From the NCBI GenBank assembly GCA_021513695.1, contig CP084166.1:128001-192000 (forward strand): a stretch of DNA of 64,000 nucleotides. The letters are read 5' to 3'. Below are positions 7,580 to 43,779 of this stretch, piece after piece. Source of the stretch: Candidatus Heimdallarchaeum aukensis. GTDB taxonomy: Archaea > Asgardarchaeota > Heimdallarchaeia > Heimdallarchaeales > Heimdallarchaeaceae. The notes under the pieces were generated by a model. That model was not told the DNA's origin. It saw nothing but the letters and a program-made list of their open reading frames with translations, and ran no database searches. Every line of letters begins with the position of its first letter. Positions within the stretch are counted from its first letter, which is position 1. Made by a program: the position numbers and the translations under genes.

Positions 7580-9333
7580 TAAAAGTGATACAAGCTGATG
7601 ATTTATTAAAAGTATATTATGACCCTATTACTGAATACAAAGTTGCTGCTTTAAGAGGGTTATCTCTTGATATTAAAGAAGGTCAGTTAGTTAGTATAAT
7701 AGGCCCTTCTGGTTCAGGTAAAACAACCTTAATTAACATTTTAGCCGGACTTGATGTTCCTACAGGTGGAAGAGTAATTGTTAAGGGTCAACAATTAGAT
7801 AAAATGACAGAAAGAGAAAGAAGAGAGTTTAGGTATTATAATATTGGTTTAATTAATCAGTTTATAAGCCAGAACTTGTTTCCAAGACTCACTGTAATAG
7901 AAAATCTGATGATACCTAAACGTATGTTTTGTCTTCCTCATGAAACAGCTAAAAAAGAAGTAGAAGAGTTACTCGAACTTTTGAGATTAAAGCATATAGC
8001 AAAGAATAATGTAGAAAAAATATCTGGAGGAGAAGCAATTCGGTTGTCTCTTGGAGTAGCCTTAGCAAAGAATCCTGATATTTTGTTGTGTGACGAACCT
8101 ACAGGTCAATTAGACAATATGCATACTAAAGAAGTAGTTGAAACTATTAAAGATGTAAATATTACCATGGGTAAAACAATACTTGTAGTTACCCACGATA
8201 TTCGCTTTAGGACTGTTTTTGAACGAAGTTTCATCATTCGTGATGGCCGTCTTGCTGGAATTAGTGTGGATATTAATAGGAATCAACTAGAATTTCTTAT
8301 GGAATCTTCTGAAATGAAGAGATCTTATGTAGACCCTTCTAATTTCGCTAGAATTCCAGATGAAATAAAACGCAGTTTAGGCATTAAAGACACTGTTGAA
8401 TATGATCTTCATCCTTCGAAAAAGATTGGTTTAATTTGGAATCCTGATTTGATAACTAGAGAAGATATTTTCCACATATTAAACAACCCAGAAGAAGAGT
8501 ATGAAGAGACAGTAGATCAAATAAGCTATGAAGATGTAGAACCTATTCTCTCTCGAAGTTTTGTACCTCCTGAAAAAGAAGAACCTATTATTAAAATAAG
8601 TAATTTGAAGAAAGGATATCCTTCTCCAGCTGGATATAATCTTGTACTAAAGGGTATTAACTTATCAATTAATAAAGGAGATTTTGTTTTTATTTCTGGT
8701 CCCAGTGGAGTAGGTAAGACTACGCTCTTTAATTGTATTTCAGGATTAGATAAGATTGATGATGGACATGTAGAAATAATGGGTTTTGATATCAAAAACC
8801 AACCAGAACCTCTTATTTCTGATTTTAGATTAAAGCACATATCTTATATCACTCAGCACAATAACCTTTTTGAACCGCTATTAGTTGAAGATAACCTTTT
8901 CTTACCTTATTTGTTTTTAGGAGAGAAGATAGATATAGATTATGCCAAAAAAATAATGAAAGAATGCTTTATTGATCATAAAATTAAGTCTTACCCTGAT
9001 GAACTTTCTGCAGGAGAAAAACAACGTGCAGCACTAGCTACTAGTTTGGCAAGGAAAACATCTATCCTTATTGCTGATGAACCCACTGCTAATCTTAATT
9101 CTGAACTTGCCCGTTCAATAATTAATCTTTTTATGGATATATCTAAGCTAGAGCAAAAAACAGTTATTATCTGTTCTCATGATTTGAGTTTATTACGTCC
9201 AGGATTTAGACATATTCGTCTATCAGATGGTCAGATAGCGGAAGATTATCGTGTAACAAAAGAGCAATTACAAGAGATTATTACAGAATACCTTAGCATT
9301 CAAAAGAACAAAAAAAATGAATCTATTACGTAA
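7576..9333 (+). CDS. ABC transporter ATP-binding protein with two tandem nucleotide-binding domains (MacB/LolD-like)
   Basis: NBD1: Walker A GPSGSGKTTL, signature ISGGEAIRLSLGVALA, Walker B ILLCDEPT. NBD2: Walker A GPSGVGKTTL, signature LSAGEKQRAALATSLA, Walker B ILIADEPT. Confidence 0.85.
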   Translation: MIKVIQADDLLKVYYDPITEYKVAALRGLSLDIKEGQLVSIIGPSGSGKTTLINILAGLDVPTGGRVIVKGQQLDKMTERERREFRYYNIGLINQFISQNLFPRLTVIENLMIPKRMFCLPHETAKKEVEELLELLRLKHIAKNNVEKISGGEAIRLSLGVALAKNPDILLCDEPTGQLDNMHTKEVVETIKDVNITMGKTILVVTHDIRFRTVFERSFIIRDGRLAGISVDINRNQLEFLMESSEMKRSYVDPSNFARIPDEIKRSLGIKDTVEYDLHPSKKIGLIWNPDLITREDIFHILNNPEEEYEETVDQISYEDVEPILSRSFVPPEKEEPIIKISNLKKGYPSPAGYNLVLKGINLSINKGDFVFISGPSGVGKTTLFNCISGLDKIDDGHVEIMGFDIKNQPEPLISDFRLKHISYITQHNNLFEPLLVEDNLFLPYLFLGEKIDIDYAKKIMKECFIDHKIKSYPDELSAGEKQRAALATSLARKTSILIADEPTANLNSELARSIINLFMDISKLEQKTVIICSHDLSLLRPGFRHIRLSDGQIAEDYRVTKEQLQEIITEYLSIQKNKKNESIT

Positions 9334-15537: not shown

Positions 15538-16911
15538 TTATGTTTCATCTTCAGCGACTGTATCTTGAACAACTGTAGCATCTAAATCTTCTTCAAATGC
15601 GTGTAAATATTTCTCCTTTTCAAAGAAGAATTTATCTCCGTGTAAAGGTTCAAGTTGATCTATCCAAGTTGCTTTCTCATTGAACTTAGCAAAGAAAGGT
15701 TTGCCTACCCATTCAGGGTTCCGAGCTTGAATGAATCTTAAAACAAAAATATCTTTATCATTATCCAGTTTATTTACGCCCAAGACATGTATTTTACCGT
15801 ATAAAGAACTCATTACAGGTCCTCTAACTGTTCGTGATAGACCAGAAACTGAACTGTAAGCTTTTATGTAAATTTTCCATGCATCAGATAATGAAACTTC
15901 AAAGAAGTGTCTTGCACCTGTGTCTCTAGCTATAAACATATAATAAGGAATCATTCCTAAATTGACCTGTTTAAACCACATTTCAGACCATACTTCTGGA
16001 GAATCGTTGATATGTTTAAGAATTGGTGATTGAGTTCTTATTACAGCACCAGTCTTTAAAATTCTCTTTATTGCTTCTTTAACAGCTTCTGTTTTCAGTT
16101 CGTTTGGATGGTTGAAATGAGCCATAAAAGCTAAATGTTTTTTATTTTCAACTATCTCAGAAAATAGCTCCAGAATGTCTTCATGGTCTTTGTCACTTAA
16201 ATATCTATAAGGCCAGTAACTTAATGTTTTGGAACCTATTCTTATACGTTTAAGATGTTTAATATCAGCTTCTAGAATTGGGTCAATGTACCTACGTAAA
16301 ACACTTGCTTGCATTATCATAGGGTCTCCACCGGTAATAAGGAGATCTTGAACTTCTTGGTGCATTTGTAAATAATCCACAAGCTTATCAGGATTCCTTA
16401 AACTCATCTTCCACTCTTTTTCTTTAATAAATTGAGGCCATCGGAAGCAAAAAGTACAGTAAGCATGACATGTTTGACCTTGAATAGGAAAAACTAAAGC
16501 TGTTTCTCTGTATTTATGTTGAATACCTTCAACAATTTCTCCTTGAAATTTAGGAATATTGTATTCAAGCTGTCCTGCTGGATGAGGATTTAGTTGCAAA
16601 TGTATTTGATGTATATAGTGAAAAAGTTCTTTTTTGTCTCCTTTCTGATAAATTTCCTTTAGGTTATCAAACTCATTATGAGGTAGCATCTTTTTATGAG
16701 GGAAATTTAGCAAGAAAATAGGATCTGATTTATAATATTCCCAGTCGATCAGTTCTTCCATAACATAATTATTGGTTTTAAAAGGAAAAACTAATGAAAG
16801 AAGTTTAATCTCTTCTATAACTTCTTTAGGAAGATTATTCTCTTCTGCTATTTTTTCTATATCTTTTCTCAAATATGCTTTATACCTTTTTTGAAACTCC
16901 ATTAAATTCAC
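15538..16911 (-). CDS. KamA-family radical SAM aminomutase (lysine 2,3-aminomutase-like)
   Basis: CHAYCTFCFRWPQF is the CxxxCxxC cluster, which sits in a KamA-like context. Length and conserved blocks match lysine/glutamate 2,3-aminomutases. Confidence 0.65.
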   Translation of the reverse strand: MNLMEFQKRYKAYLRKDIEKIAEENNLPKEVIEEIKLLSLVFPFKTNNYVMEELIDWEYYKSDPIFLLNFPHKKMLPHNEFDNLKEIYQKGDKKELFHYIHQIHLQLNPHPAGQLEYNIPKFQGEIVEGIQHKYRETALVFPIQGQTCHAYCTFCFRWPQFIKEKEWKMSLRNPDKLVDYLQMHQEVQDLLITGGDPMIMQASVLRRYIDPILEADIKHLKRIRIGSKTLSYWPYRYLSDKDHEDILELFSEIVENKKHLAFMAHFNHPNELKTEAVKEAIKRILKTGAVIRTQSPILKHINDSPEVWSEMWFKQVNLGMIPYYMFIARDTGARHFFEVSLSDAWKIYIKAYSSVSGLSRTVRGPVMSSLYGKIHVLGVNKLDNDKDIFVLRFIQARNPEWVGKPFFAKFNEKATWIDQLEPLHGDKFFFEKEKYLHAFEEDLDATVVQDTVAEDET

Positions 16912-17112: not shown

Positions 17113-19200
17113 TTAAACACTCATTGTGAGGGTTTCATTAAATTGAGGGACAACTAGATCTTTGTGTTTAATAGTAATATTCTCTGGAGTATGAACCATT
17201 ATTTTCTTCCCATTAAGTTCTGAAATAAACTTATCCAAATTTCTAGGAGTAGTGTGTCCACTTATTTGTAGATTGTAAATTTGCTGAGAGTATTGATTTA
17301 AAGCTACAGGATGATTTGTTTTTAATGAGTAGCCTAAAGTTTCAGGGGCTTGATAACCACAGATTATTACTCCAACATCATCATTATCTCTTGTTTCATC
17401 TAAGAGCAATCTAGAGGTTCCTCCTTGAAGCATTCCATTTCCTGCAATTACAATATCTCCATCTTCAAATTCGTCAGCGTTCATACTTTTTAGTAATGTA
17501 TGATCTCCTGAAATACCCATTAATTTTGTTATTTCACTAGCTAACCCAACAATTTTTACATTGTGTTCTTTTGTTAAACGTAGTTTTTCTAAAAGTGTAT
17601 ACATTTCCTGTGCTCTTCCAACAGAAAAAGCTGGGATAATTACCTTTTTATTCTGTTTAACGGCATTTAAAACAGTTGTTTCATTATCAACCTTTTTTAG
17701 ATTTCTATTATAGTATGTTCCATCAAAAATGGTTACATCGGCATCGGTAGGAAATTCAGCTCCTTTGAAAAGATAACTTTTTTCTACTTTAAAATCTCCA
17801 GTAAACAAAATTCTCTTTCCGAATATTTCAATTAAATATCCATAACTTCCAAATACATGAGAAGAAGGAATAGGAGTAATTAAGAACTCAGGAGAAATCT
17901 CTATAGATTTTTTAGGTTTAAGTGGATTAAATCTATTAAAGAAATGAATTAATGTTGATTCACTTTTTATTGCTTTTAGGTATGGTGATAATAACTTTTC
18001 ATCAGGTATTCCTTTTAACATTGTTGAAGTGTTGAAAAGTAACTTTTCTCCTATTACTTTTGTATTTACACTTCCATACCATCTTTTTTCTTCATCAATA
18101 TTTACTAAATAAGGTAGAGCTCCAATATGATCTAAATGAGCATGGGTCACAAGTATTGCTTTCACAGTTCTCAAAGAAGGATGCCATCGAGGAATAGAAT
18201 AGTTGCTAACACTCATCCCATAATCTAGTAAAATGGCATCGTTATTATGTTGAATAAGTATAGCCATATTTCCAATTCCTCCACCACCTAAAAATGTAAT
18301 TCGTACTTTTTGGGCTAGTTTATGGCAAGAATAAGCTTTTTTCGAAGCAAATTCTTTAATTAACTTTGGAGGAGTATTTGCTAATTCTTCTAATTTTACT
18401 ATTCTAGGTTCTACTTTTTCTCTTATTTTCTCAAAGAATGGTTTGTATGTAATGGGGACAATTGGGTATTTACTTTTATTTAAAAGATTTTCAATCTTTT
18501 TTTGAACTTCTGGAATTGATGTTTTTTTATCCAGAGAAAGTTCTGAAATAATAAATTCACTATATCTTAAATCTAGTTCAGATAGTAGCTTATAATCTAT
18601 AAAAAAATCTAGAAATTCTAGCACTTCTGTAGGAAAATTTGGAATAAATTCTTCTAAATAGTTAGATTTTTCTTGTAATAGCTTAACCATTTTTTCTAAT
18701 TTTTCTGCTAATTCCTGAGTTTTTTGGTTGATGGTAAATGGTACGTTTAGTTTTTCTAAAATAGCGATGAATTCTGAAAAAGATCTAGGTTTTATACCCA
18801 TATCTCTACAAAAGTTTAGATACTGAAAGTAATCAATCTCTCTTTTTTTTACTTTCTTGGTTGAATAAATTAGAAAGAACAATATTATATTTTCATGTTT
18901 CAGACTATCTGTAAGCTGTAAATGTTGAAAAACCTCCTTTACAAGTTTAATATCGATTAAATCCTTTGCATACAAAGTAAATAAAACAGCAAGAAATTGT
19001 TCTCTTTGTTCTATGTCAATAGGTGTATTCCATGAAAGATTGAAGATATCTCCTATTGTTTTTGGGATTTCTTCAATTTCTCCTTTTTCTAGTATTCTAC
19101 TAAAATGTTTAACTTGCGTAATTAACTCTTCTTCTATTTGGGGTTCCTTTTCACCATTTAACAAAAATTCAATAATATTTTTTCCTGCTTGAATACTCAT
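17113..19200 (-). CDS. beta-CASP metallo-beta-lactamase ribonuclease (aCPSF/RNase J-like) with a novel N-terminal helical extension of about 300 aa
   Basis: HAHLDHIGALPYL is the MBL HxHxDH motif. IIPAFSVGRAQE is beta-CASP motif A. ISGHTTPRNL carries the motif C histidine. The N-terminal 300 aa have no KH or other recognisable domain. Confidence 0.6.
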   Translation of the reverse strand: MSIQAGKNIIEFLLNGEKEPQIEEELITQVKHFSRILEKGEIEEIPKTIGDIFNLSWNTPIDIEQREQFLAVLFTLYAKDLIDIKLVKEVFQHLQLTDSLKHENIILFFLIYSTKKVKKREIDYFQYLNFCRDMGIKPRSFSEFIAILEKLNVPFTINQKTQELAEKLEKMVKLLQEKSNYLEEFIPNFPTEVLEFLDFFIDYKLLSELDLRYSEFIISELSLDKKTSIPEVQKKIENLLNKSKYPIVPITYKPFFEKIREKVEPRIVKLEELANTPPKLIKEFASKKAYSCHKLAQKVRITFLGGGGIGNMAILIQHNNDAILLDYGMSVSNYSIPRWHPSLRTVKAILVTHAHLDHIGALPYLVNIDEEKRWYGSVNTKVIGEKLLFNTSTMLKGIPDEKLLSPYLKAIKSESTLIHFFNRFNPLKPKKSIEISPEFLITPIPSSHVFGSYGYLIEIFGKRILFTGDFKVEKSYLFKGAEFPTDADVTIFDGTYYNRNLKKVDNETTVLNAVKQNKKVIIPAFSVGRAQEMYTLLEKLRLTKEHNVKIVGLASEITKLMGISGDHTLLKSMNADEFEDGDIVIAGNGMLQGGTSRLLLDETRDNDDVGVIICGYQAPETLGYSLKTNHPVALNQYSQQIYNLQISGHTTPRNLDKFISELNGKKIMVHTPENITIKHKDLVVPQFNETLTMSV

Positions 19201-19291: not shown

Positions 19292-20254
19292 TCATTTTTC
19301 TTCTTCATCATCATTTAACAAGCTACTGAAGGCTGCTCTTAATTCATTTTGAAGTGATTCTTTCATTTGCTTTGTAGATTTTTTAGGAGTAGCTGGTGTA
19401 GGCTCTGATACTGGGCTTACTTCATCTGATTCTTCCATTCGTTGAGATCTTCTTTGTTGAGCAGCTTTAACTTCTGAAAGTAAAGCTTGTTGTGGAGAAA
19501 GAGGTCTTGATGCTTGTGCAGCTTGTTCTCTCTCTTTTTTATGAGCATCAGGATCAACTTTCTTTAATTTTGCTTTTGCTTCCAGAATTGCTGAAGCTGT
19601 TGGTCCACCTAATGGTCCCACACCTCCCCCACCCATAGGTCCTGGGCCAGGAGCTGGTGATTGTTGCACTGGAGCTTTTTGTAATTTTGCTTTTGCTTCC
19701 AGAATTGCTGAAGCTGTTGGTCCACCTAATGGTCCCACACCTCCCCCACCCATAGGTCCTGGGCTAGGTGCTGGTGATTGTTGCACTGGAGCTTTTTGTA
19801 AAGATTTGGCAGCATTAGCTATCTCGCTAGCAAATCCTGGAGAACCTGGCCCTGCTCCTAGATTAGGAGCTGGTGCAGGAGCTCCACTTAAATTTGGTGT
19901 TGGAGCTGGTCCCCCTAGATTAGGCGCAGAAGTCGCTCCACCCCCTATATTTGGCGCTGGAGCTGGTCCAGAACTCAATTTAGGTGCAGAAGGTATCGAG
20001 GGACTTGGAGTACTTCCACCTATACTTGGAGCACTAGGCATTCCCATTCCTCCTCCAGGTGCTCCACCTAATTTATTCTCCAAAGCTGTTATTCGCGCAT
20101 CTAATTCGTTAATAGCATCTTCAATTCTTTCTGTAGATTTGATCATAATACTTCCAAAGTTTTCAAGAAGTCTAGTTAATTTTGCAATCGCAGTTTTCGT
20201 AGGGGAAGAACCTTCAGATAATAAATTGTCTAGGTACTCATCAATTGACATCAA
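19292..20254 (-). CDS. low-complexity Pro/Gly/Ala-rich protein with an N-terminal coiled coil and two 39-aa repeats
   Basis: After an N-terminal helix there is a long PAPAP/GGP tract. Two repeats follow: AKAKLQKAPVQQSPAP..GPMGGGGVGPLGGPTASAILE. The C-terminal tail is acidic. Confidence 0.45.
   Translation of the reverse strand: MMSIDEYLDNLLSEGSSPTKTAIAKLTRLLENFGSIMIKSTERIEDAINELDARITALENKLGGAPGGGMGMPSAPSIGGSTPSPSIPSAPKLSSGPAPAPNIGGGATSAPNLGGPAPTPNLSGAPAPAPNLGAGPGSPGFASEIANAAKSLQKAPVQQSPAPSPGPMGGGGVGPLGGPTASAILEAKAKLQKAPVQQSPAPGPGPMGGGGVGPLGGPTASAILEAKAKLKKVDPDAHKKEREQAAQASRPLSPQQALLSEVKAAQQRRSQRMEESDEVSPVSEPTPATPKKSTKQMKESLQNELRAAFSSLLNDDEEEK
19566..19799 (+). repeat. 117-bp direct repeat, 2 units, inside the Pro/Gly-rich gene
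   Basis: aattttgcttttgcttccagaattgctgaagctgttggtccacctaatggtcccacacctcccccacccataggtcctggg... occurs twice in tandem, with 2-3 mismatches near the 3' end of the unit. Confidence 0.85.
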
Positions 20255-20335: not shown

Positions 20336-21364
20336 TTAGAACGCCTCTGAAAGAACTTTAACTACTTTTTCAATATCTTCTCTGCTTATATTGAAGTGAG
20401 TTACAAAACGAATCAATTGCTCTCCCATTTGTGTTACTAAAACCCCTTGTTTTTCTAGTTTTTTGCTTAAGGTATTTGCATTATATTCTGAGTCTGAAAG
20501 ATCAATAATTACAATGTTTGTATCCACAGGTTTGACAATTATATTTTCCTTTTCTCGAAGAACTTTTTCAATCATTTTAGCGTGATCATGATCTTCTTTT
20601 AATCTATCAATCATATGGTTAAGGGCATATATTCCTGGTGCTGCTATAACTCCTGCCTGTCTCATTCCCCCTCCTACTCTTTTTCTGTTTTTTCTGGCTT
20701 TTTCAATAAACTCTTCTGTTCCCACGATTATAGAACCAATTGGACAAGCAAGTCCTTTACTTAAACAAATCTGTATTGAATCTGCATGTTCTACTAGTTT
20801 TGCTGGAGAAATATCTAACGCTACTGAAGCGTTAAATAATCTAGCTCCATCAATATGTACAGGAACTTCATAATCATGTGCTAGTTTTGCTATTTCGTCC
20901 ATATTCGATTTAGGAATAACTCTTCCTCCCCCTCTGTTGTGAGTATTTTCAATACATACTAATTTAGGATCTGCGTAATGAACATTATATGGTCTAGAAA
21001 GAATTGCTTCAATATCTTTAGGATCCATTAACCCATTGTCTCCTCTTATTAAATAAGGTAAAGCTCCAACTATTGATGCAATTCCACCAGCTTCATACAA
21101 ATATATATGGCTCTCTGCTTCTAAAATTATTCCTTCTCCTTTATTTAGATGAGTCATCTCTGAAACTAGATTTCCTTGTGTACCACTTGTAACTAGTAAG
21201 CCTGCTTCTTTACCTAGTATTTTTGCTGCTAAAACCTCTAATTCTTGTACTGTAGGGTCTTCTCTCCAAACATCATCGCCTAATTTAGCTGTTAAAATTG
21301 TTTCTAACATCTCTTTTGGAGGTAAAGTTAATGTATCAGAACGCAAATCAATTACTTTTTTCAT
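20336..21364 (-). CDS. low-specificity L-threonine aldolase (PLP-dependent)
   Basis: The N-terminus DLRSDTLTLPPKEMLE...GDDVWREDPTV is characteristic of the threonine aldolase (LtaE/GLY1) family. 342 aa. Confidence 0.7.
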   Translation of the reverse strand: MKKVIDLRSDTLTLPPKEMLETILTAKLGDDVWREDPTVQELEVLAAKILGKEAGLLVTSGTQGNLVSEMTHLNKGEGIILEAESHIYLYEAGGIASIVGALPYLIRGDNGLMDPKDIEAILSRPYNVHYADPKLVCIENTHNRGGGRVIPKSNMDEIAKLAHDYEVPVHIDGARLFNASVALDISPAKLVEHADSIQICLSKGLACPIGSIIVGTEEFIEKARKNRKRVGGGMRQAGVIAAPGIYALNHMIDRLKEDHDHAKMIEKVLREKENIIVKPVDTNIVIIDLSDSEYNANTLSKKLEKQGVLVTQMGEQLIRFVTHFNISREDIEKVVKVLSEAF

Positions 21365-21425
21365 TTCAAATATTATTTGAACAAGCTATTTAAATTATTT
21401 TTGATAAAAAAAGAGAAAATAAAAA

Positions 21426-22961
21426 CTAAAGGAATTTAGGTGGTTCAGGGATATTATCTAAATATTTAAGGAAAGGTTCTGGCCATTCGTCAGTTTTTAA
21501 GCCTTTTTGAGAAACAAAGGCAGTAATAAATCGTTCAAAACTTCCTCCTCCACAGCCTGACCAAAGATCTTTTCCTCCTTCAGTTTTTACACTAAATCCT
21601 CTTGGATATTTGTCTCCTATAATAGAAATATTCTGGATTTCTAACCACTCACTTTCTTCTCTAGAACCTCTATAAGGCATATAAGTTTCGAAGTCAATTG
21701 TACCAACAAGCATGTCTTCTTCCTCTTCATCTTTTGCAGATTGTTCAAGCCACCAAGGCATAACTTTTGCTTCTCGGACTTCTAAATCAAAAATTCTGTC
21801 AAAAACTTCTCTTAATTTCTTTCTTGTTTCAGTTGCTACCTCTTTTACTTGTTTTGGAGTGCCAATAAACAATGTTTCAATTCTATGTAATTCATCTACT
21901 CTTTCAAAACCATAAGCAGAGCCAGATTCATATCTATATGTTGGTCCACTCCAATCATAAACTAGTATAGGTAAGCTCTCTTTAGCAATTGTTTTTCCTT
22001 GAAGCCAAGCCCAGAAAGGAGGACATTGAGCATAAGACAATCCTCCTATTGGAGGAGTGATTTTTTCATATAGTTTGTCTTCAGGAATTGTTTTTGTTAT
22101 TGTTATATAATCAGCTATTTCTTCAAAAAATTCAGGGTTTGCACTTTTAGGTTGAACAACAAAGTACGGTTCAAACCCTCCTTGAAACATTCCTTCTGCA
22201 TGACCAGAGCGTAGCCAAATTGACCAGTCCACAAGCTTTGGTATCATCATTTTCTGATAGTTTAGAGGAGTATATACATGTTCAACCATTATCTTCTTTA
22301 TTGCTTCAATAACTGCTGTAATGGAAGGAGTTAAAATCCATTGATTTCTATAATTTGTTCTTTTAATCCATCCTTCTTTTTCAAGAAGTTTTGTTGGATT
22401 TTTGGAAGTAAGAAGTTTCTTTTCACCTGAATACCAAGCAACTGTATGGTGTTCTTTTTTAGCTCCATGATAATCTTTAGATATTTTATCATTGATTCTT
22501 CTTAATATCCGTTCTATTGCTCCTTTTTCAACAAAATCTTCTTCTATTTCAGGGTCTATCTCAATTCTTGCCCAAGGTTCATCCTCTTTTTTGAAAAACT
22601 CAAGCTTTGATGTTAAAGGTAAAGTAAATTCTCTTTTAGGTTCAAGTTTAAGTTTTTTCTCTATCTCATATTTGATAAATTTAAAACCTCTTAGACCAAT
22701 TTTGTATTTTTTGCCAATTTCTTGTGCTAATTGTTTGCGCATGCGTAAAACTATAGTGTGAGGAGCATATGAGTCAACTGAATTAAGAGAAAGTACAATC
22801 TTCTTATCCTTTATTTCAGAAAGTTCAATAGTGAATTTTCCTTTTGGACGTTTAGAATTTAAATCTTGTTCATATTTTGAAATAAACTGTGTTAAATGTT
22901 CTATACTCTCTTTAGGTAATTCTCCGCTTGTGATAAAATATAGTTCTAAAGTTTGTTTCAT
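21426..22961 (-). CDS. atypical class II aminoacyl-tRNA synthetase-like protein (methanogen-type SerRS / amino acid:carrier-protein ligase-like)
   Basis: Motif 2-like YRYESGSAYGFERVDELHRIE and motif 3-like SGCGGGSFERFITAFV are present. The N-terminal domain of about 170 aa is unrelated to bacterial-type SerRS. Specificity is unknown. Confidence 0.4.
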   Translation of the reverse strand: MKQTLELYFITSGELPKESIEHLTQFISKYEQDLNSKRPKGKFTIELSEIKDKKIVLSLNSVDSYAPHTIVLRMRKQLAQEIGKKYKIGLRGFKFIKYEIEKKLKLEPKREFTLPLTSKLEFFKKEDEPWARIEIDPEIEEDFVEKGAIERILRRINDKISKDYHGAKKEHHTVAWYSGEKKLLTSKNPTKLLEKEGWIKRTNYRNQWILTPSITAVIEAIKKIMVEHVYTPLNYQKMMIPKLVDWSIWLRSGHAEGMFQGGFEPYFVVQPKSANPEFFEEIADYITITKTIPEDKLYEKITPPIGGLSYAQCPPFWAWLQGKTIAKESLPILVYDWSGPTYRYESGSAYGFERVDELHRIETLFIGTPKQVKEVATETRKKLREVFDRIFDLEVREAKVMPWWLEQSAKDEEEEDMLVGTIDFETYMPYRGSREESEWLEIQNISIIGDKYPRGFSVKTEGGKDLWSGCGGGSFERFITAFVSQKGLKTDEWPEPFLKYLDNIPEPPKFL

Positions 22962-23031
22962 TTCGTTCGATAGAAAGAATCAGTTATCTATTTTAAACTA
23001 TTTCTTCTATCGATAAAAAAGTAAAAAGAAG

Positions 23032-24774
23032 TTATTTGTCATTGATTTTTACTTGTAAGAAATACTCAATTATTTCTTTCAAATCTTTCTTTGTTATACG
23101 TTTATCTGACTGAATTCCACCTTTTTCTAAGACTATGTGTCTCATTCCTGGTCTTAACAAACTAAGATCATGCGAGCAAATAATTACTGTTGTTTGTAAT
23201 TTTTCTGCAACATCCATTAATACATCAATTATGGCTCTTGCCAAATCACTATCTAAATTAGCTGTTGGTTCATCTCCTATTAGAATAGGCGTTTTTCTTG
23301 TTAATGCAAGTGATAAGGAAGCTCGTTGTTTTTCTCCAGCAGAAAGTTCATCAGGATAAGCTTCTAACTTATGTTTTATTTGACATTCCTCAACCATATT
23401 TAGAGAGTACTCTTCATCATAGTCTAATTTAGAAAACAGATAAGGGACAAGAAGATTATCTTTAACTGTAACAGGTTCAAAGAGGTTATTATGCTGAGTG
23501 ATATAAGCAATGTTCTTTAATCTAAACATTGATGTTTCATATTCATCTTTATCATGAAGTGAAACATTATTGATAATTATTTCTCCTTTATCTGCTTTTA
23601 CAAGTCCTGTAATGCAATTAAAAAGGGTAGTTTTTCCTACTCCACTGGGCCCAGTAATCATTACGAAATCTCCTTTTTTAACTTCTAAGTTAATGTTTTT
23701 TATTACTTGATTATAACCTGCTGGAGAATGATATCCTTTGGAAACTCCTTTTAATTGCAAAATATTTTCTCTACTCTCTATGAAGTTGAATTTTCTGCTA
23801 ATAATTTTTTCAATTTCTTCATAAGAAATTTCTCGAGATTCTTTAATCGCTTCGTCAACTGGTTTATTCAAAATCTTGTATATTTCTTCTCTATTTACTA
23901 TATCAGGATTCCAAAATAAACCAAGAGATCCAGCAGGATGAGCGTCAAATTCTACTACATCATAAAGCTTTGTTTTCATCTTTATTTGATCAGGTATTCT
24001 AAGAAGGCTATTTTTATCTAAGTAAGCCCGATTATTTGTAGAAGAACTTGTCATAAATTCAAGTTTATCTTTTTCCATATCTTGACTTACTCCTACTAAT
24101 CTCCCATCTCTAATGATAAAGCTATGTTTGAATACATTTCTAAAGCGGATATCGTGAGTCACAACAACAATAGTTTTACCCGTGTTCTCGTTAATATCTT
24201 TTATAGTATTAATTACTTCTTTAGTATGCTCAGTATCTAATTGACCTGTAGGCTCGTCAAGAAGTAGAAATTTAGGATTTTTAGCTAAGGCTGCACCTAA
24301 AGATAAACGCATAGCCTCTCCACCAGAAATGCGAGAAACGAGATTATTTCGCACATGATATAAGTTTAACAGTTCTAAAATTTCCTTGACTTCTCTTCTG
24401 GCTTGCTCTCTTGGAATGTAAAATAATTTTTTGTGTATCATAAGATTCTTTTCAACAGAGAGATTTGAGAATAAGTTATCGCTAATATTTTGATTGATCA
24501 ACCCAATGTATCTGAATCTGAACTCTCTTAGTTGTTTTTGAGACATTTTTTCTAAATGATGGTTGTCAATAATGACTGATCCTCCAGTAATATCTTCTAA
24601 GCCAGATAAAATCTTGATTAATGTGGTTTTTCCTGCTCCAGAAGGACCAACTATACTTACAAGATCACCTTTTTCTACATATAAATCTAATCCTCTTAAA
24701 GCAGCAACTTTATAATCAGAATGAGGGTCGAAATAAATTTTAAATAAATCAATACATTGTATCATTTTTATCAC
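23032..24774 (-). CDS. ABC transporter ATP-binding protein with two tandem NBDs (diverged paralog of 7576..9333)
   Basis: Walker A GPSGAGKTTL and GPSGVGKTTL; signatures ISGGEAMRLSLGAALA and LSAGEKQRASLSLALT. The domain order matches the first copy. Confidence 0.85.
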   Translation of the reverse strand: MIKMIQCIDLFKIYFDPHSDYKVAALRGLDLYVEKGDLVSIVGPSGAGKTTLIKILSGLEDITGGSVIIDNHHLEKMSQKQLREFRFRYIGLINQNISDNLFSNLSVEKNLMIHKKLFYIPREQARREVKEILELLNLYHVRNNLVSRISGGEAMRLSLGAALAKNPKFLLLDEPTGQLDTEHTKEVINTIKDINENTGKTIVVVTHDIRFRNVFKHSFIIRDGRLVGVSQDMEKDKLEFMTSSSTNNRAYLDKNSLLRIPDQIKMKTKLYDVVEFDAHPAGSLGLFWNPDIVNREEIYKILNKPVDEAIKESREISYEEIEKIISRKFNFIESRENILQLKGVSKGYHSPAGYNQVIKNINLEVKKGDFVMITGPSGVGKTTLFNCITGLVKADKGEIIINNVSLHDKDEYETSMFRLKNIAYITQHNNLFEPVTVKDNLLVPYLFSKLDYDEEYSLNMVEECQIKHKLEAYPDELSAGEKQRASLSLALTRKTPILIGDEPTANLDSDLARAIIDVLMDVAEKLQTTVIICSHDLSLLRPGMRHIVLEKGGIQSDKRITKKDLKEIIEYFLQVKINDK

Positions 24775-27700
24775 TCCAAATTCATAGGTTGATATCTAGC
24801 AAATTGCATTTTCATTGTCATGTAGAATATAGAGAAAAACATAACAGGAATAACTAGAAAAATTATCACCGCAATAACTGGTGGAAACTGAATAGGATTA
24901 GGCAATATCTCTTGCCTTAGGCTTCTTAACACTCTTCGTATAATTTCAGTTATTGTAAAACCTACTGCTGTACCACTGATTATTCCAGGAAGAATTCCAA
25001 TCATGAATAATTCAAAGGAACTCATTTGAATTATAAGTTTGTTAGGTATACCCATCTTCTTAAGAATGTCATGCTTACCCATTCTTCTTTGCAATATCTT
25101 AAGAGGATTACTCATACTTGTAAATACAATAGAGATTATGCAAATTAATAATGAAAAAACAAATATTGAAACTATCGAAGCATAAAAGGGAAGATTGGTA
25201 CGGTAAATTTCTTGTTCTTCTTCAACTATGTTAATGATTTCTAGATTGTATTTCTCTTCTAAACTTGAAGAAAATTGAACTATATCCGTTTTTTCTTCAA
25301 CATTTATTAATAATCTATAACCAAATACTCCAAAAACGGTTAAACTCTCTTCTATTTTCTCATAATTGCTCTCTGTTAGAACAATCATAGGAGTTCCTCC
25401 CGATTCTCGTGGACCATAAGGATAGATTATGGGGAAATAGTCAAACTCATCTATTATCTTCACTTCTACGTCATCGAATGAGTATTTCATTTCGCTAATA
25501 TCAAAGAAAAACTTGAAGTTGCTAGAAACAATTATCTCTTTATCGTTATCCAGTTGAGGAATAATATCATCCCAATTTTTGTAAAATCTTTCTGAAGGTT
25601 TATACGCTGTATTATAGAAATCCGAAGCTTTTTGAATCACTAAAAGATTTAACTGTCTTCCTCCAAACATTGCGTCAACTTGAGAAACGTTACATATGCC
25701 GATTACTTCGGGAAGAATTTTAATTTCATCACTGATACTGGAATTAACGTTATTGTAATTGCTTATATACATATCAGCTCCTGCCATAAAGTAAGAATCT
25801 TTTATTATCCCATTCTGCATTGTTAGAGGAGCAGCTATTGCAGGAACAGCAATTCCTACCAAAAGTAAATAGGTCAAGAAAATATCATTAAACAATGAAA
25901 GATCTGTTTTTACTTCAACTAATGAGAAAGTGAATATATTCTTCTTAATTTTCCACAAAGTTTTGCTTAAAACTGCCATAATAAAAGAGTGAAGATCTTT
26001 TAAAATTAGTCCTAAACCGAATAAAGATATCATTACTCCAATTCCAATAATATACACGAAAATGTTTATCAATTGGTTATCTGAAGAAGAAAGATTTTCG
26101 CTGAAAGTTAGATATAGTTTTAGTCCTCCGTAAATTATTCCTCCTCCAACAGCAATAATAATGAAGTTGCCGATTTTCACCTTTTTAAGAAAAGAAACAA
26201 ATTTGTTATAATCTCTTATTTGCTCCTTCTTTATTTTTGCCATTCTTATTGTTAAAGGTAAAGTAATAATTATTAAACCAAAGAACGAAATTGTGAAAAT
26301 TAAAGGAAGATTCTTTAACGAAGGCATTGTAGAACTTAGATTGAAAGAGACAAATCTATCTAATTTTAATAAAATGGGAATAATCAGTATTGCTTCTCCT
26401 AAACCTAAAAAGGTTGCAATAAGTGATTCTACAAATTTCATTACTGTGTTCAGATAAACTATTTTTCCAGTTGACAACCCTTTGGAACGGAGAATTTTAA
26501 TTTCTTCATCAAAACTTGTAGCAAATAAGGCATTTGTTTCAAAAATCAAGAATAGTGCAAGGTAAAGGACAGGTATTGATAATAAAACAATTAGAAATTG
26601 AGTAGAGGAATAGGAAGGAACTAAACTTTGCAATACTAGTTTTAATTCAGTTGAAATAACCCAAGAACCACCTAAATCAAATTTTACAGGATGATCGTAA
26701 CTTGGTTGTAAAATGTCAAAATCATTTATTAGTTTTCCAATATTTTTAGAATTAACTAAAGAAAAATCATAGAAAAATTGAACTATACCATCAAATTTCA
26801 GATGTTGAACTGGCATAGTTTTTAAACTTGACAGATAAAAATCATTGAAAGTTATTGCACCGATGTATTGTGAAATCATTTCTATGAGATCATATGATAA
26901 TCCATAATCTCTACTCATCTTAAATAATGAAGGTTCTGTTGGTTTTTCGTAAATCCCTACAATAGTCATGTTCACTCTTTCTTTTAAACCTCCAACAGAG
27001 ACATCTGCACCAACAAAGACAATAGTGTCGTTTATTGTTTTATTGAAAGCTGTCGCTGTAGTTTGATCGATTATAACTTCATTGATTTTATCAGGTAACC
27101 TACCTGAAACTAGAATTCTTCCCAAAATATCCTTATAATTAGTAGATAAGGAATAATATGATTCTACGCTCTGAACTGTACTCTCAGTATCCTTCTTAAA
27201 TAGAATTCGCATTTGCATTGAATAATCAGAATCAATAATTATATCCTTCAAAACTTCAGTTTTAAAAGCGATAGTTGAAAGAATCTCGTTCATAACAGCA
27301 GAAGAAAAATTCTCGTAAAAAGGTGAGTATTCATTTACTCTCCCCCATCTCGCGGAAAGAACATTATGCATTCTCGAAAACGTAGCTGAAGCTTTTTCAT
27401 CTTCTTCTAAATGAGCATCTTCTAAATATTGTTGTATCATCATGTTTTGTTTATATGAAAAGAGTGAAGAAGAAGAGAAAACAATCATTGCCAAAATTGA
27501 TAAGCCTAGTATTGTTATTATAGCTCTCTTTTTGTTTGATCTCCATAAATCGAAAGGAAGACTCAATGAACTTACAATAAAAACCCATAGATTGAGAAAT
27601 ACTAAAACAAATTTACTTTTTCCAGTTTTTATAGGTCTAAATAAAAACCTAAATAGTTTTTTTCCTTGATTTACTATTTTTTTGTAAAATATGGCTATAA

Positions 27701-29195
27701 ATAGTAAGAGAATTGAGATAGCTATTGTAAATTCAATCCAATGTATTCTAAAAACATATTGAAAGAAGTTTACTAAAGTTAGATCGTAAATAACAGGTCT
27801 TATAATACTGTTGAAAGATAAATTACTATTTGAATAAATTAAAACAGAAAAGACATTAGGTTCTACTATAACTTTGTTTTCTAGTTGAGTATCATGAAAT
27901 CTCTGTGTTCTACTAACTAAAAAAGTAGTAGGAGATTGAAAATTGATATGAGTCGAGTCGAAAACCGTAATGTTTGAAGTGAAAGGAATATCAATAAATT
28001 GTTGAGTAATATTTTTTCCATTATATCTTAAAATAGTAAATTCAGTAATTAAATCAGCCTTAGAATTACTTGAATTAAGAGGTAAGTGGGGATTAGGGTT
28101 GATTAAGAATGTTATTGACGAATCAAAAGAGTAGTGATACAAGTCATCATATGAATACATTCCCAATTGAAATTCACTAAAGTTTTCAAAAGAAAGACTT
28201 TCGTTCAATTTAAAATTATGAGTATAGAATGTTGATCCTTTAATTAGAGCCAAGTTTAGTGTAGTTTGATTAAATACCGATAAATAAACATCATAATCAG
28301 TATTGAAAAGAAGATAGTTACTTAAATAAGGGTCATCGTTTATGATATATATTCCAACTAGCCTTGTTGGGAAAAACATATACTTGTACAATGCAACTAA
28401 TTTTCCATCAACAAGTAGCAATGTTTGAATGCCATTATATTCTAAATCTGTAAACCAATTTTCAGTGCTTGAAGTTCCATTTAGAAAAACTGTTAATTTT
28501 TTAAATTTAGTCTTTGGGTGCTCATCCATTGCCGATTCAAACATTGGTTCTGCAAACAGCAAATAGAAAGAGTTTTCTATAAACTGAACATTATAGATAA
28601 AATAATTTCCAAAAAAACTTGAATGGTAAATCAAGAAATTACTTTTGTTTTGTTCTGATTCCCAAACATACATTTCAATATTGAATTGCCCAAAGTTTCC
28701 ATGATATGAATAGAACAATACTATTTTGTTATCAATTCTAAAGGTGTCAAAAATTGTTCCTGGACTTAAATCTGTTTTAATCTTTGATATATTTCCTTCA
28801 AACAAATGAAAGATAGTGAAGGATTGATTTTCTAATTCCATTTTTATGAATAAGTGTAATCTTTCTTGAGTGTCTAACACCGCTCTTGTTTCTAAATCTA
28901 CTATTGTTTCATAAGCTTGAAAATAACCTATAACCTCTTCTTTAACTTCTGGATTTTCAGTTATATCAGCACTTATTAGCAAAGAATTATAATTTAAACT
29001 TAATATAGACGCTATTAAAATAAACACGAAATATTTTTTTTCCATACCAATCTCCCATCGGATATGCCTTTTTTTGAACACTTTAAAATTTTCCTCTGTA
29101 AAAATATTTTTTAAATGAATAAATACTTCAAGAAAAGAATTTATATATTGCAAGTTCTTGTTAAGCAAAATGTCCTCAAAAACCTCTAAAGACAC
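24771..29195 (-). CDS. single-chain FtsX/MacB-type permease (diverged paralog of 3260..7579)
   Basis: Same architecture as the first copy. The probable true start is at 29045 (MEKKYFVFILIASILSLNYNSLLISADI, a signal peptide). The ORF-track start at 29195 overlaps the divergent MFS gene. DLWRSNKKRAIITILGLSILAMIVF is the FtsX N-terminal motif. Confidence 0.6.
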   Translation of the reverse strand: MSLEVFEDILLNKNLQYINSFLEVFIHLKNIFTEENFKVFKKRHIRWEIGMEKKYFVFILIASILSLNYNSLLISADITENPEVKEEVIGYFQAYETIVDLETRAVLDTQERLHLFIKMELENQSFTIFHLFEGNISKIKTDLSPGTIFDTFRIDNKIVLFYSYHGNFGQFNIEMYVWESEQNKSNFLIYHSSFFGNYFIYNVQFIENSFYLLFAEPMFESAMDEHPKTKFKKLTVFLNGTSSTENWFTDLEYNGIQTLLLVDGKLVALYKYMFFPTRLVGIYIINDDPYLSNYLLFNTDYDVYLSVFNQTTLNLALIKGSTFYTHNFKLNESLSFENFSEFQLGMYSYDDLYHYSFDSSITFLINPNPHLPLNSSNSKADLITEFTILRYNGKNITQQFIDIPFTSNITVFDSTHINFQSPTTFLVSRTQRFHDTQLENKVIVEPNVFSVLIYSNSNLSFNSIIRPVIYDLTLVNFFQYVFRIHWIEFTIAISILLLFIAIFYKKIVNQGKKLFRFLFRPIKTGKSKFVLVFLNLWVFIVSSLSLPFDLWRSNKKRAIITILGLSILAMIVFSSSSLFSYKQNMMIQQYLEDAHLEEDEKASATFSRMHNVLSARWGRVNEYSPFYENFSSAVMNEILSTIAFKTEVLKDIIIDSDYSMQMRILFKKDTESTVQSVESYYSLSTNYKDILGRILVSGRLPDKINEVIIDQTTATAFNKTINDTIVFVGADVSVGGLKERVNMTIVGIYEKPTEPSLFKMSRDYGLSYDLIEMISQYIGAITFNDFYLSSLKTMPVQHLKFDGIVQFFYDFSLVNSKNIGKLINDFDILQPSYDHPVKFDLGGSWVISTELKLVLQSLVPSYSSTQFLIVLLSIPVLYLALFLIFETNALFATSFDEEIKILRSKGLSTGKIVYLNTVMKFVESLIATFLGLGEAILIIPILLKLDRFVSFNLSSTMPSLKNLPLIFTISFFGLIIITLPLTIRMAKIKKEQIRDYNKFVSFLKKVKIGNFIIIAVGGGIIYGGLKLYLTFSENLSSSDNQLINIFVYIIGIGVMISLFGLGLILKDLHSFIMAVLSKTLWKIKKNIFTFSLVEVKTDLSLFNDIFLTYLLLVGIAVPAIAAPLTMQNGIIKDSYFMAGADMYISNYNNVNSSISDEIKILPEVIGICNVSQVDAMFGGRQLNLLVIQKASDFYNTAYKPSERFYKNWDDIIPQLDNDKEIIVSSNFKFFFDISEMKYSFDDVEVKIIDEFDYFPIIYPYGPRESGGTPMIVLTESNYEKIEESLTVFGVFGYRLLINVEEKTDIVQFSSSLEEKYNLEIINIVEEEQEIYRTNLPFYASIVSIFVFSLLICIISIVFTSMSNPLKILQRRMGKHDILKKMGIPNKLIIQMSSFELFMIGILPGIISGTAVGFTITEIIRRVLRSLRQEILPNPIQFPPVIAVIIFLVIPVMFFSIFYMTMKMQFARYQPMNLE

Positions 29196-31379: not shown

Positions 31380-32174
31380 TTATAGTTTTTTTATATATTC
31401 GATTATAGAATTAAAATTATTATTAGTTAGAGAAGAGTATACAATCAGATTTTTCTGTAAGAACGAAATTTCTTCCAGCTTTTTGCTTATTCTTTCAAAG
31501 TTTTTAGTTGTATTTTTAATATCACTTTTTGTTAAAATAAATGACATTCTAAGTTTATTCTCATCTTCAATTTTCTTCAGAATTGCAAAAATTCTTTCAT
31601 ACAAAGATTCTTTGTAGATAAAGCCATAGTCAAGAACAAAAAAGATCGCATCAAAGTTATTTTCGACTTTTTCATTTAGATAATATGAAATCAAATCCAT
31701 ATTTCCGCCAATTTCTGTAATTTTTAATTTTTTTCCAAGGAAATAAAATTGAGATGTGGAAATTCCGATATTATGAAGTTTAGTTCCCAAAAAAGCATTG
31801 TAATTTAATCTGTGAATAATACTCGATTTTCCACATTTACTAAAACCAATTAGTAGAATGTTGAGTTGTTTATTTTCCTTTCTTGAGATTGAATATTGTA
31901 CTTTGAATTGATTTTTTTGTCCAAAAGTAATTTTGGTAGAATATTGACCTAGAATTGAGCCTGTTGATTCAATTATTTTTCCAAAACCATCAAAAATGCT
32001 TATACCAAGAATAAATTCTTCAGGAATTTTTTCTAGGAGTTGAAGGAGAAGTGATTTGATAGATATTTGATTTTGTAAATAAAATGACAATTTGTTATGG
32101 AATTCATTATTTTGAACTATTTGTCTTAGCAACTGTGTGGCAATTGTATCTTCTTTCACGTTTATTAAGTTCAT
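31380..32174 (-). CDS. Ras-superfamily small GTPase with an N-terminal roadblock-like extension of about 100 aa
   Basis: G1 LLIGFSKCGKSSI (GxxxxGKS); G3-like ITEIGGN; G4 ILTKSD (N/TKxD). The N-terminal ILGISIFDGFGKIIESTG region resembles a roadblock core. Confidence 0.55.
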   Translation of the reverse strand: MNLINVKEDTIATQLLRQIVQNNEFHNKLSFYLQNQISIKSLLLQLLEKIPEEFILGISIFDGFGKIIESTGSILGQYSTKITFGQKNQFKVQYSISRKENKQLNILLIGFSKCGKSSIIHRLNYNAFLGTKLHNIGISTSQFYFLGKKLKITEIGGNMDLISYYLNEKVENNFDAIFFVLDYGFIYKESLYERIFAILKKIEDENKLRMSFILTKSDIKNTTKNFERISKKLEEISFLQKNLIVYSSLTNNNFNSIIEYIKKL

Positions 32175-41208: not shown

Positions 41209-42174
41209 CTATTCTCCCAAATTTTTTCTCCAGTTGTAATCTTCTTTTGCTATCAGTGTAACAGCAGAATCTTCTTTTGAATCGATGATTTTTAATTCTG
41301 TATTTTCTATAATCTTCTTTGAAAATTCTAGTATTTTTGGGTACCTTGGCATTATTTCATAAGGTAACCTTTTTCTTGCGTCTCCAACACTCATAAAACC
41401 TTTTACTTCTAGAAAATGAGCTTCTGATCTTAAAAATAATTCAGCAAAAGCTTCTGGTTCGACTAAATTGTAGTTTTCATCTACTAAAGTTAATCTTATA
41501 ACTTTTCTAGTGTTAAGCGAAGGAAGTAATTCAATTGTTTCCATCACTTTGTTCCATAGATTTGAAAAAGAAGGACGAGCAGTTTTTTTGAAACTTTCTT
41601 CAGTAGGGGCAATTAGAGTAACATAGAGTTGAGTAGGAAGAGGGTCAAGTTTCTTCAACATTTCAGGATTAGTGCCATTAGTTACTAGAAAAGTAGTCAT
41701 ATCACGATTGTGGAACTCTTGAATTAATTCTGGTAACAAAGGATAGAAAGTTGGTTCTCCACTTAAAGAAATTGCAGCATGTTTTGGATTGTAAGCTTCT
41801 TCATATAATCTTGGTTCTACTTTTGGATGATTTTTGAATCCTGCAATTAGTCTTCTTTGATGTTCTATCATTTGATCAATAATATATTCCGGTTTGTCAA
41901 CTTTTCCTCTCATTAATTCTTTGTTGTACCATGATGCACTTCTCCAGCAAAAAACACATTTTAGATTACACCATATTGTTGCAGGAGTACATTGAAGACA
42001 ACGGTGAGAAGCTATTCCGTAAAATTGTTGTTTATAGCAAAAACCTTCTCCTTTTAACGCGTGCTTTAACCAGGTGCAAATTTTTACTGCAGAGTGATTA
42101 CCAGCTATTCTGTACTGTTGTTTTTCTAGTTTGTCTTTCAATTTTGGAGGAATAATGTTTGTATTTAAACTCAT
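41209..42174 (-). CDS. taw1: tRNA 4-demethylwyosine synthase (Taw1/TYW1), radical SAM
   Basis: HSAVKICTWLKHALKGEGFCYKQQFYGIASHRCLQCTPATIWCNLKCVFCWRSASW matches archaeal Taw1, including the CxxxCxxC cluster. Confidence 0.8.
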   Translation of the reverse strand: MSLNTNIIPPKLKDKLEKQQYRIAGNHSAVKICTWLKHALKGEGFCYKQQFYGIASHRCLQCTPATIWCNLKCVFCWRSASWYNKELMRGKVDKPEYIIDQMIEHQRRLIAGFKNHPKVEPRLYEEAYNPKHAAISLSGEPTFYPLLPELIQEFHNRDMTTFLVTNGTNPEMLKKLDPLPTQLYVTLIAPTEESFKKTARPSFSNLWNKVMETIELLPSLNTRKVIRLTLVDENYNLVEPEAFAELFLRSEAHFLEVKGFMSVGDARKRLPYEIMPRYPKILEFSKKIIENTELKIIDSKEDSAVTLIAKEDYNWRKNLGE

Positions 42175-42301
42175 TAGATTTACTTATTTTTCTTTATTTT
42201 TAGACTTTATCTTTATTGAAATTTTTTTTGATTAAATTTACTATAAAATTAACAAAGGAAAACAATAGATTAAAATATTTAAAAAATTAAAATATACTGA
42301 T

Positions 42302-43417: not shown

Positions 43418-43569
43418 GCTTCTTTAAAATTCTGAAAATTGCCAAAAAAATTTTTCTAAAACAATTTTTTATTATTTATTAATTTTCGTAATACCTTGCT
43501 AATACTAAATCCTTCACGACAAAAACATATTTATTTCTGTTTACAATTGTGATATAGTAGATATCTAAG

Positions 43570-43779
43570 ATGGAATATGGGGTTAATATGAAAAAAAAGC
43601 TGATTACATTTAAAGTAACAGAAGCTATGATGAAATGGATAGCAGAAATGATGGAAAAGGGGAATTATAAAAATAGAACAGAATTAATTGTAGATGCTCT
43701 TAGAGAGTTTCTCATCCAAGAAAGAATGGTTGAAGATCAGGAAGAACTAGAAGCAATTTTTGAAAGAATTGATGAATAG
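43570..43779 (+). CDS. ribbon-helix-helix (CopG-like) DNA-binding protein
   Basis: 69 aa. KLITFKVTEAMMKWI is a beta-strand followed by two helices (NRTELIVDALREFL), the typical RHH layout. Confidence 0.45.
   Translation: MEYGVNMKKKLITFKVTEAMMKWIAEMMEKGNYKNRTELIVDALREFLIQERMVEDQEELEAIFERIDE

Follow-up and report, generated by a model that had tools for sequence, protein, structure and literature searches.

A 64,000-nucleotide window from the Asgard archaeon Candidatus Heimdallarchaeum aukensis (contig CP084166.1, positions 128,001 to 192,000; coordinates below are those of the window) contains an intact and strongly conserved gene for the rare zinc-dependent form of seryl-tRNA synthetase (SerRS). 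This single enzyme form goes by the names type-2, methanogen-type, rare or atypical SerRS; the enzyme found here is ordinary, and its host lies well outside the methanogens. The data make it very probable that the gene specifies a functional type-2 SerRS of the Heimdallarchaeum lineage, that it has its own promoter and has been vertically inherited in the Heimdall group, and that it probably provides the main or only SerRS of the cell, the last being the most conditional part of this reading. The initial annotation had left two options, an unusual (methanogen-type) SerRS or a non-canonical amino-acid-activating enzyme of the kind that loads carrier proteins, and the evidence below favours the former.

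Identity, fold and active site of the synthetase

The features of the gene are given first. Conservation refers to an alignment of 119 sequences, comprising the query, the Methanosarcina barkeri SerRS chain from the PDB and 117 database homologs.

21426..22961, minus strand: complete open reading frame (ORF) of the type-2 SerRS, ATG to TAG, 511 aa (ORF list, PDB, NCBIfam, AlphaFold2 (AF2), Foldseek)
22467..22961, minus strand: N-terminal globular tRNA-binding domain, aa 1-165 (PF18490, AF2/DSSP)
21429..22466, minus strand: class II catalytic domain, aa 166-511 (PF00587, full-length 2cim alignment)
22023..22025, minus strand: codon of Cys313, first zinc ligand (M. barkeri Cys306), invariant in 119/119
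21876..21950, minus strand: motif 2 region SGPTYRYESGSAYGFERVDELHRIE (aa 338-362), including R343, E345 and R354 and ending in Glu362, all four 119/119
21711..21761, minus strand: equivalent of the serine-ordering loop, MPWWLEQSAKDEEEEDM (aa 401-417), with W403 (invariant) and Q407 (115/119)
21531..21566, minus strand: motif 3 region LWSGCGGGSFER (aa 466-477), with Cys470 and R477 (each 117/119, the other two gapped)

A search of the PDB matched the protein to M. barkeri SerRS (2cim) over residues 5-511 (E 3.7e-116) and to Methanopyrus kandleri SerRS (3w3s; E 5.9e-62), and sequence matches were limited to these two proteins (2CIM with related entries, and 3W3S). The NCBIfam profile PRK00960 ("serine--tRNA ligase") aligned residues 1-511 with profile positions 3-515/518 (454.2 bits, E 5e-136) and TIGR00415 (serS_MJ) scored 223.2 bits. 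Two Pfam domains exceeded their gathering thresholds: PF18490 (tRNA_bind_4) covered residues 1-162 with 161/162 profile positions (E 1e-14; 55.2 bits against a cutoff of 25), and PF00587 (tRNA-synt_2b) covered residues 312-485 (36.2 against a threshold of 29.3). No Pfam match to PF02403, the canonical Seryl_tRNA_N coiled coil, was obtained in the ORF at E <= 1, and the earlier remark that the N-terminal domain is unlike that of bacterial-type SerRS is therefore correct.

An AlphaFold2 model generated from a 72-sequence alignment had a mean predicted local distance difference test (pLDDT) of 90.6 and a predicted template-modelling score (pTM) of 0.81. The sole stretch with pLDDT below 50 was residues 407-416, as expected for a loop predicted to become ordered upon substrate binding. 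In the model's N-terminal domain, DSSP assigned six strands (residues 2-11, 42-51, 54-62, 90-103, 117-125 and 128-135) and four helices (19-37, 67-86, 141-145 and 148-165), which agree with the six-stranded sheet and four helices described for the atypical SerRS (PMC3711452). When compared with the PDB using Foldseek, eight M. barkeri SerRS chains ranked first and M. kandleri SerRS came next; the match to 2cim_A was full length (template-modelling score (TM) 0.89/0.93, root-mean-square deviation 2.4 Å), and superposition of the model on both 2cim and 3w3s spanned the full length. Glycine:[carrier protein] ligases of the Bll0957 type covered only the catalytic core of the model (TMq 0.48), at core identities, including those of canonical SerRS, of 12-16%. 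Because the N-terminal domain is kept, the fold is matched over its full length, and both the ligases and canonical SerRS fit the core only, the protein is a type-2 SerRS in complete form, not one of the truncated amino acid:[carrier protein] ligases.

Aligning the protein with M. barkeri SerRS, a comparison suggested by the initial annotation, placed C313, E362 and C470 on the Cys/Glu/Cys zinc ligands. Glu362, at the end of the motif 2 region, is the equivalent of the second ligand (Glu355) and Cys470 that of the third (Cys461), while R477 is the motif 3 arginine. The M. barkeri residues W396, Q400, N435 and S437 aligned with W403, Q407, N444 and S446 of the query, and R336, E338 and R347 with R343, E345 and R354. 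The M. barkeri numbering (C306/E355/C461) follows Bilokapic et al. 2006, and the residue roles of W396/Q400/N435/S437 are those of the M. barkeri literature; when the PDB chain is shifted by a single offset of +20, the ligand positions land on C, E and C. The query has kept every zinc, pocket and motif 2/3 residue examined, and each is shared by 115-119 of the 119 aligned sequences. The motif 2 and motif 3 strings quoted in the initial annotation are present in the translation of the 511-aa ORF, and the class II catalytic residues R343, R354 and R477 are likewise in place.

The zinc, cysteine and glutamate mechanism of methanogen-type SerRS has been reviewed (PMC7373986). Judged by its homologs from M. 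barkeri and M. kandleri, the Heimdallarchaeum protein would act as a homodimeric class II synthetase, in which an active-site Zn2+ held by Cys313, Glu362 and Cys470 would bind the amino group of serine with displacement of a water molecule, and the loop at 401-417 (W403, Q407) would become ordered over the substrate. The motif 2 and motif 3 arginines R343, R354 and R477 would bind ATP, leading to the seryl-adenylate, and the N-terminal domain (aa 1-165) would grip the long extra arm and outer corner of tRNASer so that serine could be moved to the 3′ end. If the organism has a tRNASec, it would presumably be gripped in the same manner.

The second option of the initial annotation, a non-canonical amino-acid-activating enzyme or amino acid:[carrier protein] ligase, was not supported. 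The hidden Markov model (HMM) for amino acid:acyl carrier protein ligases (PRK07080) scored 16.8 bits against a cutoff of 357, the known ligases fit the core only, and a PP-binding or carrier-protein gene was absent from the two intergenic gaps of 61 and 70 nt, from the neighbouring genes of the window and from seven related loci; this candidate was rejected on these grounds. The same results bear on a wider proposal, in which the gene would be a neofunctionalised paralog kept beside a canonical SerRS and would act on another small amino acid, acylate a carrier protein or other acceptor, or serve tRNASec only. Against such a paralog, every serine-pocket and zinc residue of M. barkeri SerRS is kept, as is a complete tRNA-binding N-terminal domain that is predicted with high confidence. 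Sub-cutoff NCBIfam equivalog scores and the homology of the catalytic core to the carrier-protein ligases (Foldseek E ~1e-15) speak for the paralog, but the dedicated ligase HMM fails by a wide interval and no carrier-protein gene lies at any locus inspected. A pyridoxal phosphate-dependent aldolase that interconverts Thr and Gly is found next door within Heimdallarchaeaceae, which would also suit a paralog, but this adjacency is gone outside the family and the two genes are divided by separate terminator- and promoter-like signals. A ratio of nonsynonymous to synonymous substitution (dN/dS) of 0.04, together with uniform conservation, fits a housekeeping gene, and we consider a neofunctionalised paralog very improbable.

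Distribution, descent and status as the cellular SerRS

A scan of the genome collection identified 530 species-representative genomes with relatives of the type-2 SerRS gene. The closest match was on the closed chromosome of Ca. Heimdallarchaeum endolithica PR6 (CP084167.1; 95% aa identity), with which the window is colinear (86.4% DNA identity over 9.5 kb), so that the window represents another species or strain of that lineage, and the closest database proteins were labelled Heimdallarchaeaceae or Heimdallarchaeota. Carriers included dozens of Heimdall-group metagenome-assembled genomes (MAGs), which comprise two clades (63-77% and 48-56% identity to the query) plus Kariarchaeaceae. Other named carriers included Altiarchaeota, Micrarchaeia and Undinarchaeota; Methanocomedens (a member of the anaerobic methanotrophic archaea, ANME-2), Methanoperedens, Methanocellales and Methanosarcinaceae; and one Archaeoglobi member and MAGs labelled Thermoplasmatales. 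The view taken in the initial annotation, that this enzyme is normally restricted to methanogens, follows the literature (PMC4427996, PMC3711452) but does not fit current sequence data, as the 530 species-level genomes include the Heimdall group.

A tree was computed by neighbour joining from 477 columns, with 100 bootstraps and with M. kandleri as the outgroup. In it, sequences from Asgard archaea grouped as one clade with a bootstrap value of 65, which rose to 98 with one further sequence. This clade splits into Heimdallarchaeaceae (100) with Kariarchaeaceae (79) on one side and a second group (100) on the other, an arrangement compatible with vertical descent. Its nearest neighbours were a subset of Altiarchaeota and one Micrarchaeia sequence, and the whole assemblage was separate from the clade of Methanosarcinales, ANME and Archaeoglobi. 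In comparison with the ortholog of PR6 the dN/dS was 0.038, and with orthologs further removed it was 0.09-0.15. Both GC content (0.33) and GC content at third codon positions (GC3; 0.18) were like those of neighbouring genes, in a window of ~30% GC throughout. Because tree, composition and dN/dS together point the same way, the gene appears to be old, vertically inherited and strongly constrained, and not a recent transfer from a methanogen.

The Asgard sequences are 39-43% identical to those of Methanosarcinales and ANME and belong to a different clade, their closest relatives being from Altiarchaeota and Micrarchaeia. Moreover, the Asgard clade is deep (48-77% internal identity) and structured by family, GC and GC3 equal those of the flanking genes, and synteny is kept across the family. 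In the face of these data it is very unlikely that the gene is a xenolog, obtained recently by horizontal transfer from a methanogen or an archaeon of the ANME group in the same sediment or vent habitat, even though the rare SerRS is patchily distributed with a proposed history of horizontal gene transfer (HGT) (PMC4427996) and Heimdallarchaeum co-occurs with ANME and Methanosarcinales in hydrothermal sediments (source of PR6: PMC8813620). Composition and tree position were the grounds for rejecting recent HGT. A transfer in ancient times, to the ancestor of the Heimdall group, is compatible with the best explanation, in which the type-2 gene has since descended vertically.

The taxon names attached to several public contigs with this SerRS are implausible. 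Inside the Asgard clade fall a protein labelled "Zixibacteria" and a contig labelled "Bathyarchaeia", the SerRS of an "Anaerolineales bacterium" contig is nearly identical to that of Methanocomedens (ANME-2), and a "Thorarchaeota" contig bears a Heimdallarchaeaceae-type SerRS with 66% identity to the query. These labels (P0039; L030; L042; L056; L071) are probably binning or labelling errors.

Pfam scans of 44 of the window's 47 ORFs that reach 120 aa gave no PF02403 match, and hence no canonical SerRS; of the other three ORFs, two encode large membrane proteins and the third a UDP-glucose dehydrogenase, and none of them is plausibly an aminoacyl-tRNA synthetase (aaRS). Within the window there was thus no second SerRS to bear out the term paralog used in the initial annotation. 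The window yielded neither tRNA genes nor Rfam matches. Lineages generally retain one form of SerRS and lose the other, and because of this pattern the two forms are regarded as functionally equivalent (PMC4427996). In the favoured explanation the Heimdallarchaeum gene would be a housekeeping gene of translation that has a promoter to itself and has been passed on vertically within the Heimdall group, and its product would probably be the main or sole SerRS of the cell.

Four points weigh against this interpretation. The ORF scored under the NCBI curated equivalog cutoffs of both families (454.2 against 611 for PRK00960, 223.2 against 489.55 for TIGR00415); the tree was built by neighbour joining only, with 65% bootstrap at the Asgard-only node; and the case for the Asgard members is made from sequences and models. 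In addition, M. barkeri carries both forms of SerRS, so coexistence is possible. With regard to the first point, the equivalog cutoffs are an annotation threshold tuned on methanogen sequences and do not mark a defining biological feature. Several close orthologs are named "aminoacyl--tRNA ligase-related protein" by the Prokaryotic Genome Annotation Pipeline (PGAP) because their scores fall under these cutoffs; other close orthologs are named "serine--tRNA ligase" by the same pipeline.

Genomic context and other genes in the window

The features that surround the type-2 SerRS gene are as follows.

20336-21364, minus strand: threonine aldolase-family gene, downstream of SerRS (Beta_elim_lyase, Pfam E 2e-95; NCBIfam GntG, LtaE)
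21387-21394: putative TATA-like box of the aldolase gene itself
21401..21425, minus strand: oligo-T tract right after the SerRS stop codon, which looks like an archaeal terminator and divides SerRS from the aldolase gene
22989..22997, minus strand: TATA-box-like element TTTAAAATA, ~32 nt upstream of the SerRS ATG and preceded by a purine-rich stretch, a putative dedicated promoter
23011..23030, minus strand: oligo-T tract right after the stop codon of the upstream ABC ATPase gene, which looks like an archaeal terminator

SerRS is separated from its two neighbours by 61 and 70 nt. Since an oligo-T tract followed by a TATA-like box occurs in both spacers, SerRS appears to form a separate transcription unit. 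The purine-rich stretch and the TTAAAA(T) box lie at an equal distance from the ATG in eight orthologous loci with otherwise divergent spacers, and T-rich tracts following the SerRS stop codon are also found in orthologous loci. A scan for sigma-70 promoters returned 9 sites against 11 expected and is uninformative for an archaeon; the TATA-like boxes were read directly from the DNA.

The downstream neighbour had been called a threonine aldolase, which is right at the family level (GntG / low-specificity threonine aldolase; GntG 410 bits, LtaE 310 against a cutoff of 312). In Heimdallarchaeaceae the gene order is kept down to 67% identity and consists of a ~1450-aa membrane protein, a double ABC ATPase, SerRS, the aldolase (Beta_elim_lyase), a ~270-320-aa protein of low complexity and a beta-CASP protein. 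SerRS is accompanied by HycI, TYW2/TRM5 and a PUA protein in the second Asgard clade, by Pelota in Kariarchaeaceae and by CBS proteins in Altiarchaeota. The pairing of aldolase and SerRS is family-level synteny only. A functional link between the two, proposed earlier as a Ser/Gly/Thr metabolic context, was rejected, given that the adjacency is confined to Heimdallarchaeaceae and that the oligo-T tract and TATA-like box lie between the genes.

The low-complexity protein two genes downstream of SerRS (19292-20254, minus strand) is an orphan of ~270-320 aa, confined to Heimdallarchaeaceae, where it forms 13 clusters, all annotated "hypothetical"; orthologs lie at 6711-7652 of locus L011, 7563-8432 of L017 and 7312-8223 of L025. 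It has a conserved N-terminal helical domain with a sub-threshold Pfam match to the WASH subunit CCDC53 (E 5e-4), Pro/Ala/Gly-rich APNL repeats and a conserved acidic tail, "KSTKQMKEALQGELRDAFSSLLESD". Its motifs "L[ML]KAA.NLQKAP" and "DIQDVRSGLTKVDP[DE]EH[RK]KER" resemble WH2/LKKV actin-binding motifs. Speculatively, the layout recalls actin regulators that combine Pro-rich, WH2 and acidic segments; the G-to-LKKV spacing of the orphan, however, is two residues shorter than in the canonical WH2. Published WH2-like motifs in Asgard archaea are found only inside gelsolins (PMC9433394).

Further along this conserved block, the beta-CASP / metallo-beta-lactamase protein (17113-19200, minus strand; 695 aa) carries ~290 additional N-terminal residues in which no domain is recognised and scores far under the cutoffs for aCPSF1 (135 against 580) and type VII Cas14 (126 against 800); its position is kept in Heimdallarchaeaceae. 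A KamA-family radical-SAM aminomutase-like gene (15538-16911, minus strand; 122 bits, under every equivalog cutoff) lies between the beta-CASP and UDP-glucose dehydrogenase genes, which adjoin directly in the related loci L003 and L005, and looks like an insertion or a differential loss. On the other side of SerRS, the ABC ATPase and membrane-protein pair directly upstream is kept in position across Heimdallarchaeaceae. It is one of two paralogous gene pairs in the window (3260-9333, plus strand, and 23032-29195, minus strand), each consisting of a membrane protein (1439 and 1474 aa) and then a fused double ABC ATPase (585 and 580 aa). The ATPases are LolD/FtsE/MacB-like, and for the large membrane proteins no Pfam or NCBIfam family was checked or found.

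Elsewhere in the window, at 41280-47748, a segment of ~3.35 kb is repeated almost perfectly as a direct tandem: the copies 41280-44400 and 44630-47748 are 99.94% identical over 3121 nt. The segment holds a TYW1-like radical-SAM/Wyosine_form gene, which encodes 321 aa but 299 aa in the second copy, and a gene for a 371-aa HEAT-repeat protein; the duplication either took place very recently or is an artefact of assembly. The gene at 31380-32174 (minus strand) encodes a small GTPase of the Arf family, extended at its N terminus by ~95 aa, in keeping with an Asgard origin of the window, and a short ORF at 56788-57255 (plus strand) matches only the Cas12f1/TnpB TNB domain and is probably the remnant of a transposon nuclease. 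The window contains a second aaRS, a class IIb synthetase of the Asp/Asn type (62567-63874, minus strand).

Significance and comparison with known enzymes

The type-2 enzyme was called "unique to methanogenic archaea" in 2013 (PMC3711452) and elsewhere "confined to certain archaea" (PMC4005694). In the account of Fournier et al. 2015 its occurrence was limited to subsets of methanogens, plus secondary transfers to Methanosphaerula and a relative of Thermoplasmatales, and these authors proposed that it was acquired from an extinct lineage older than the last universal common ancestor (LUCA) (PMC4427996). Our literature search found no paper noting the rare SerRS in Asgard archaea or DPANN, and SerRS is not mentioned in the paper on the PR6 genome or in the 25 supplementary files that go with it. 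Public databases already contain these orthologs, many under the name "serine--tRNA ligase". The deep, family-structured clade of the Heimdall group, with its DPANN neighbours, weakens the premise of methanogen confinement that underlies the scenario of HGT from an extinct lineage (PMC4427996, PMC3711452).

The distribution in Asgard archaea also bears on the origin of eukaryotic SerRS, which is canonical. It is possible, though we advance it tentatively, that the rare zinc-dependent SerRS is the only one used by the Heimdall group, the archaeal lineage that is usually put nearest to eukaryotes, and that it came down from the common ancestor of the group. In that case the rare form would be an ancient and broadly archaeal enzyme (Asgard, DPANN, Euryarchaeota) and not a methanogen-specific gain from a pre-LUCA lineage now extinct, and eukaryotes could not have received their canonical SerRS by vertical descent from a Heimdallarchaeaceae-like host. 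In practice the NCBI equivalog cutoffs miss the Heimdallarchaeaceae enzymes, and genomes without a canonical SerRS would then seem to have no SerRS at all. The value of the finding lies in correcting annotation thresholds and in revising the supposed restriction to methanogens; the chemistry of the enzyme is not new.

Among characterized enzymes, M. barkeri SerRS (2CIM/2CJ9/2CJA/2CJB; PRK00960) is matched most fully: the query shares its two-domain architecture over the full length, the Cys/Glu/Cys triad, the W/Q ordering loop, the N/S pocket and the motif 2/3 arginines. The two differ in that identity is about 36-40%, and the query has small indels, such as three residues, "QGG", inserted after the GHAxG segment and two residues inserted ahead of the SEW segment, as well as a very acidic ordering loop (SAKDEEEEDM). 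The query also comes from a non-methanogenic Asgard host and groups in a separate clade on the Asgard/DPANN side. The SerRS of M. kandleri and Methanococcales type (3W3S; TIGR00415) belongs to the same family and has the same fold (TM 0.83) but is more distant, with 28% identity in the structural alignment and an outgroup position in the tree; structural work has shown that its N-terminal domain binds tRNA at the extra arm and at the outer corner (PMC3711452).

The amino acid:[carrier protein] ligases (Bradyrhizobium Bll0957, 3MEY/3MF1/4H2S; PRK07080) are homologous to the query in the class II core (~320 aligned columns), a core derived from enzymes resembling methanogen-type SerRS. In contrast to the 511-aa query with its N-terminal domain, they are ~300 aa long, lack the tRNA-binding domain and act on a phosphopantetheinylated carrier protein. 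Canonical SerRS (Thermus thermophilus 1SRY, human 4RQF; PF02403 and PF00587) has in common with the query the reaction, the use of the long extra arm of the tRNA as determinant (PMC3711452) and a class IIa core. However, it possesses a coiled-coil N-terminal arm, for which the query has no PF02403 match, and no active-site zinc, and its structural match to the query is confined to the core (Foldseek TMq ~0.49-0.50, 12-15% identity).

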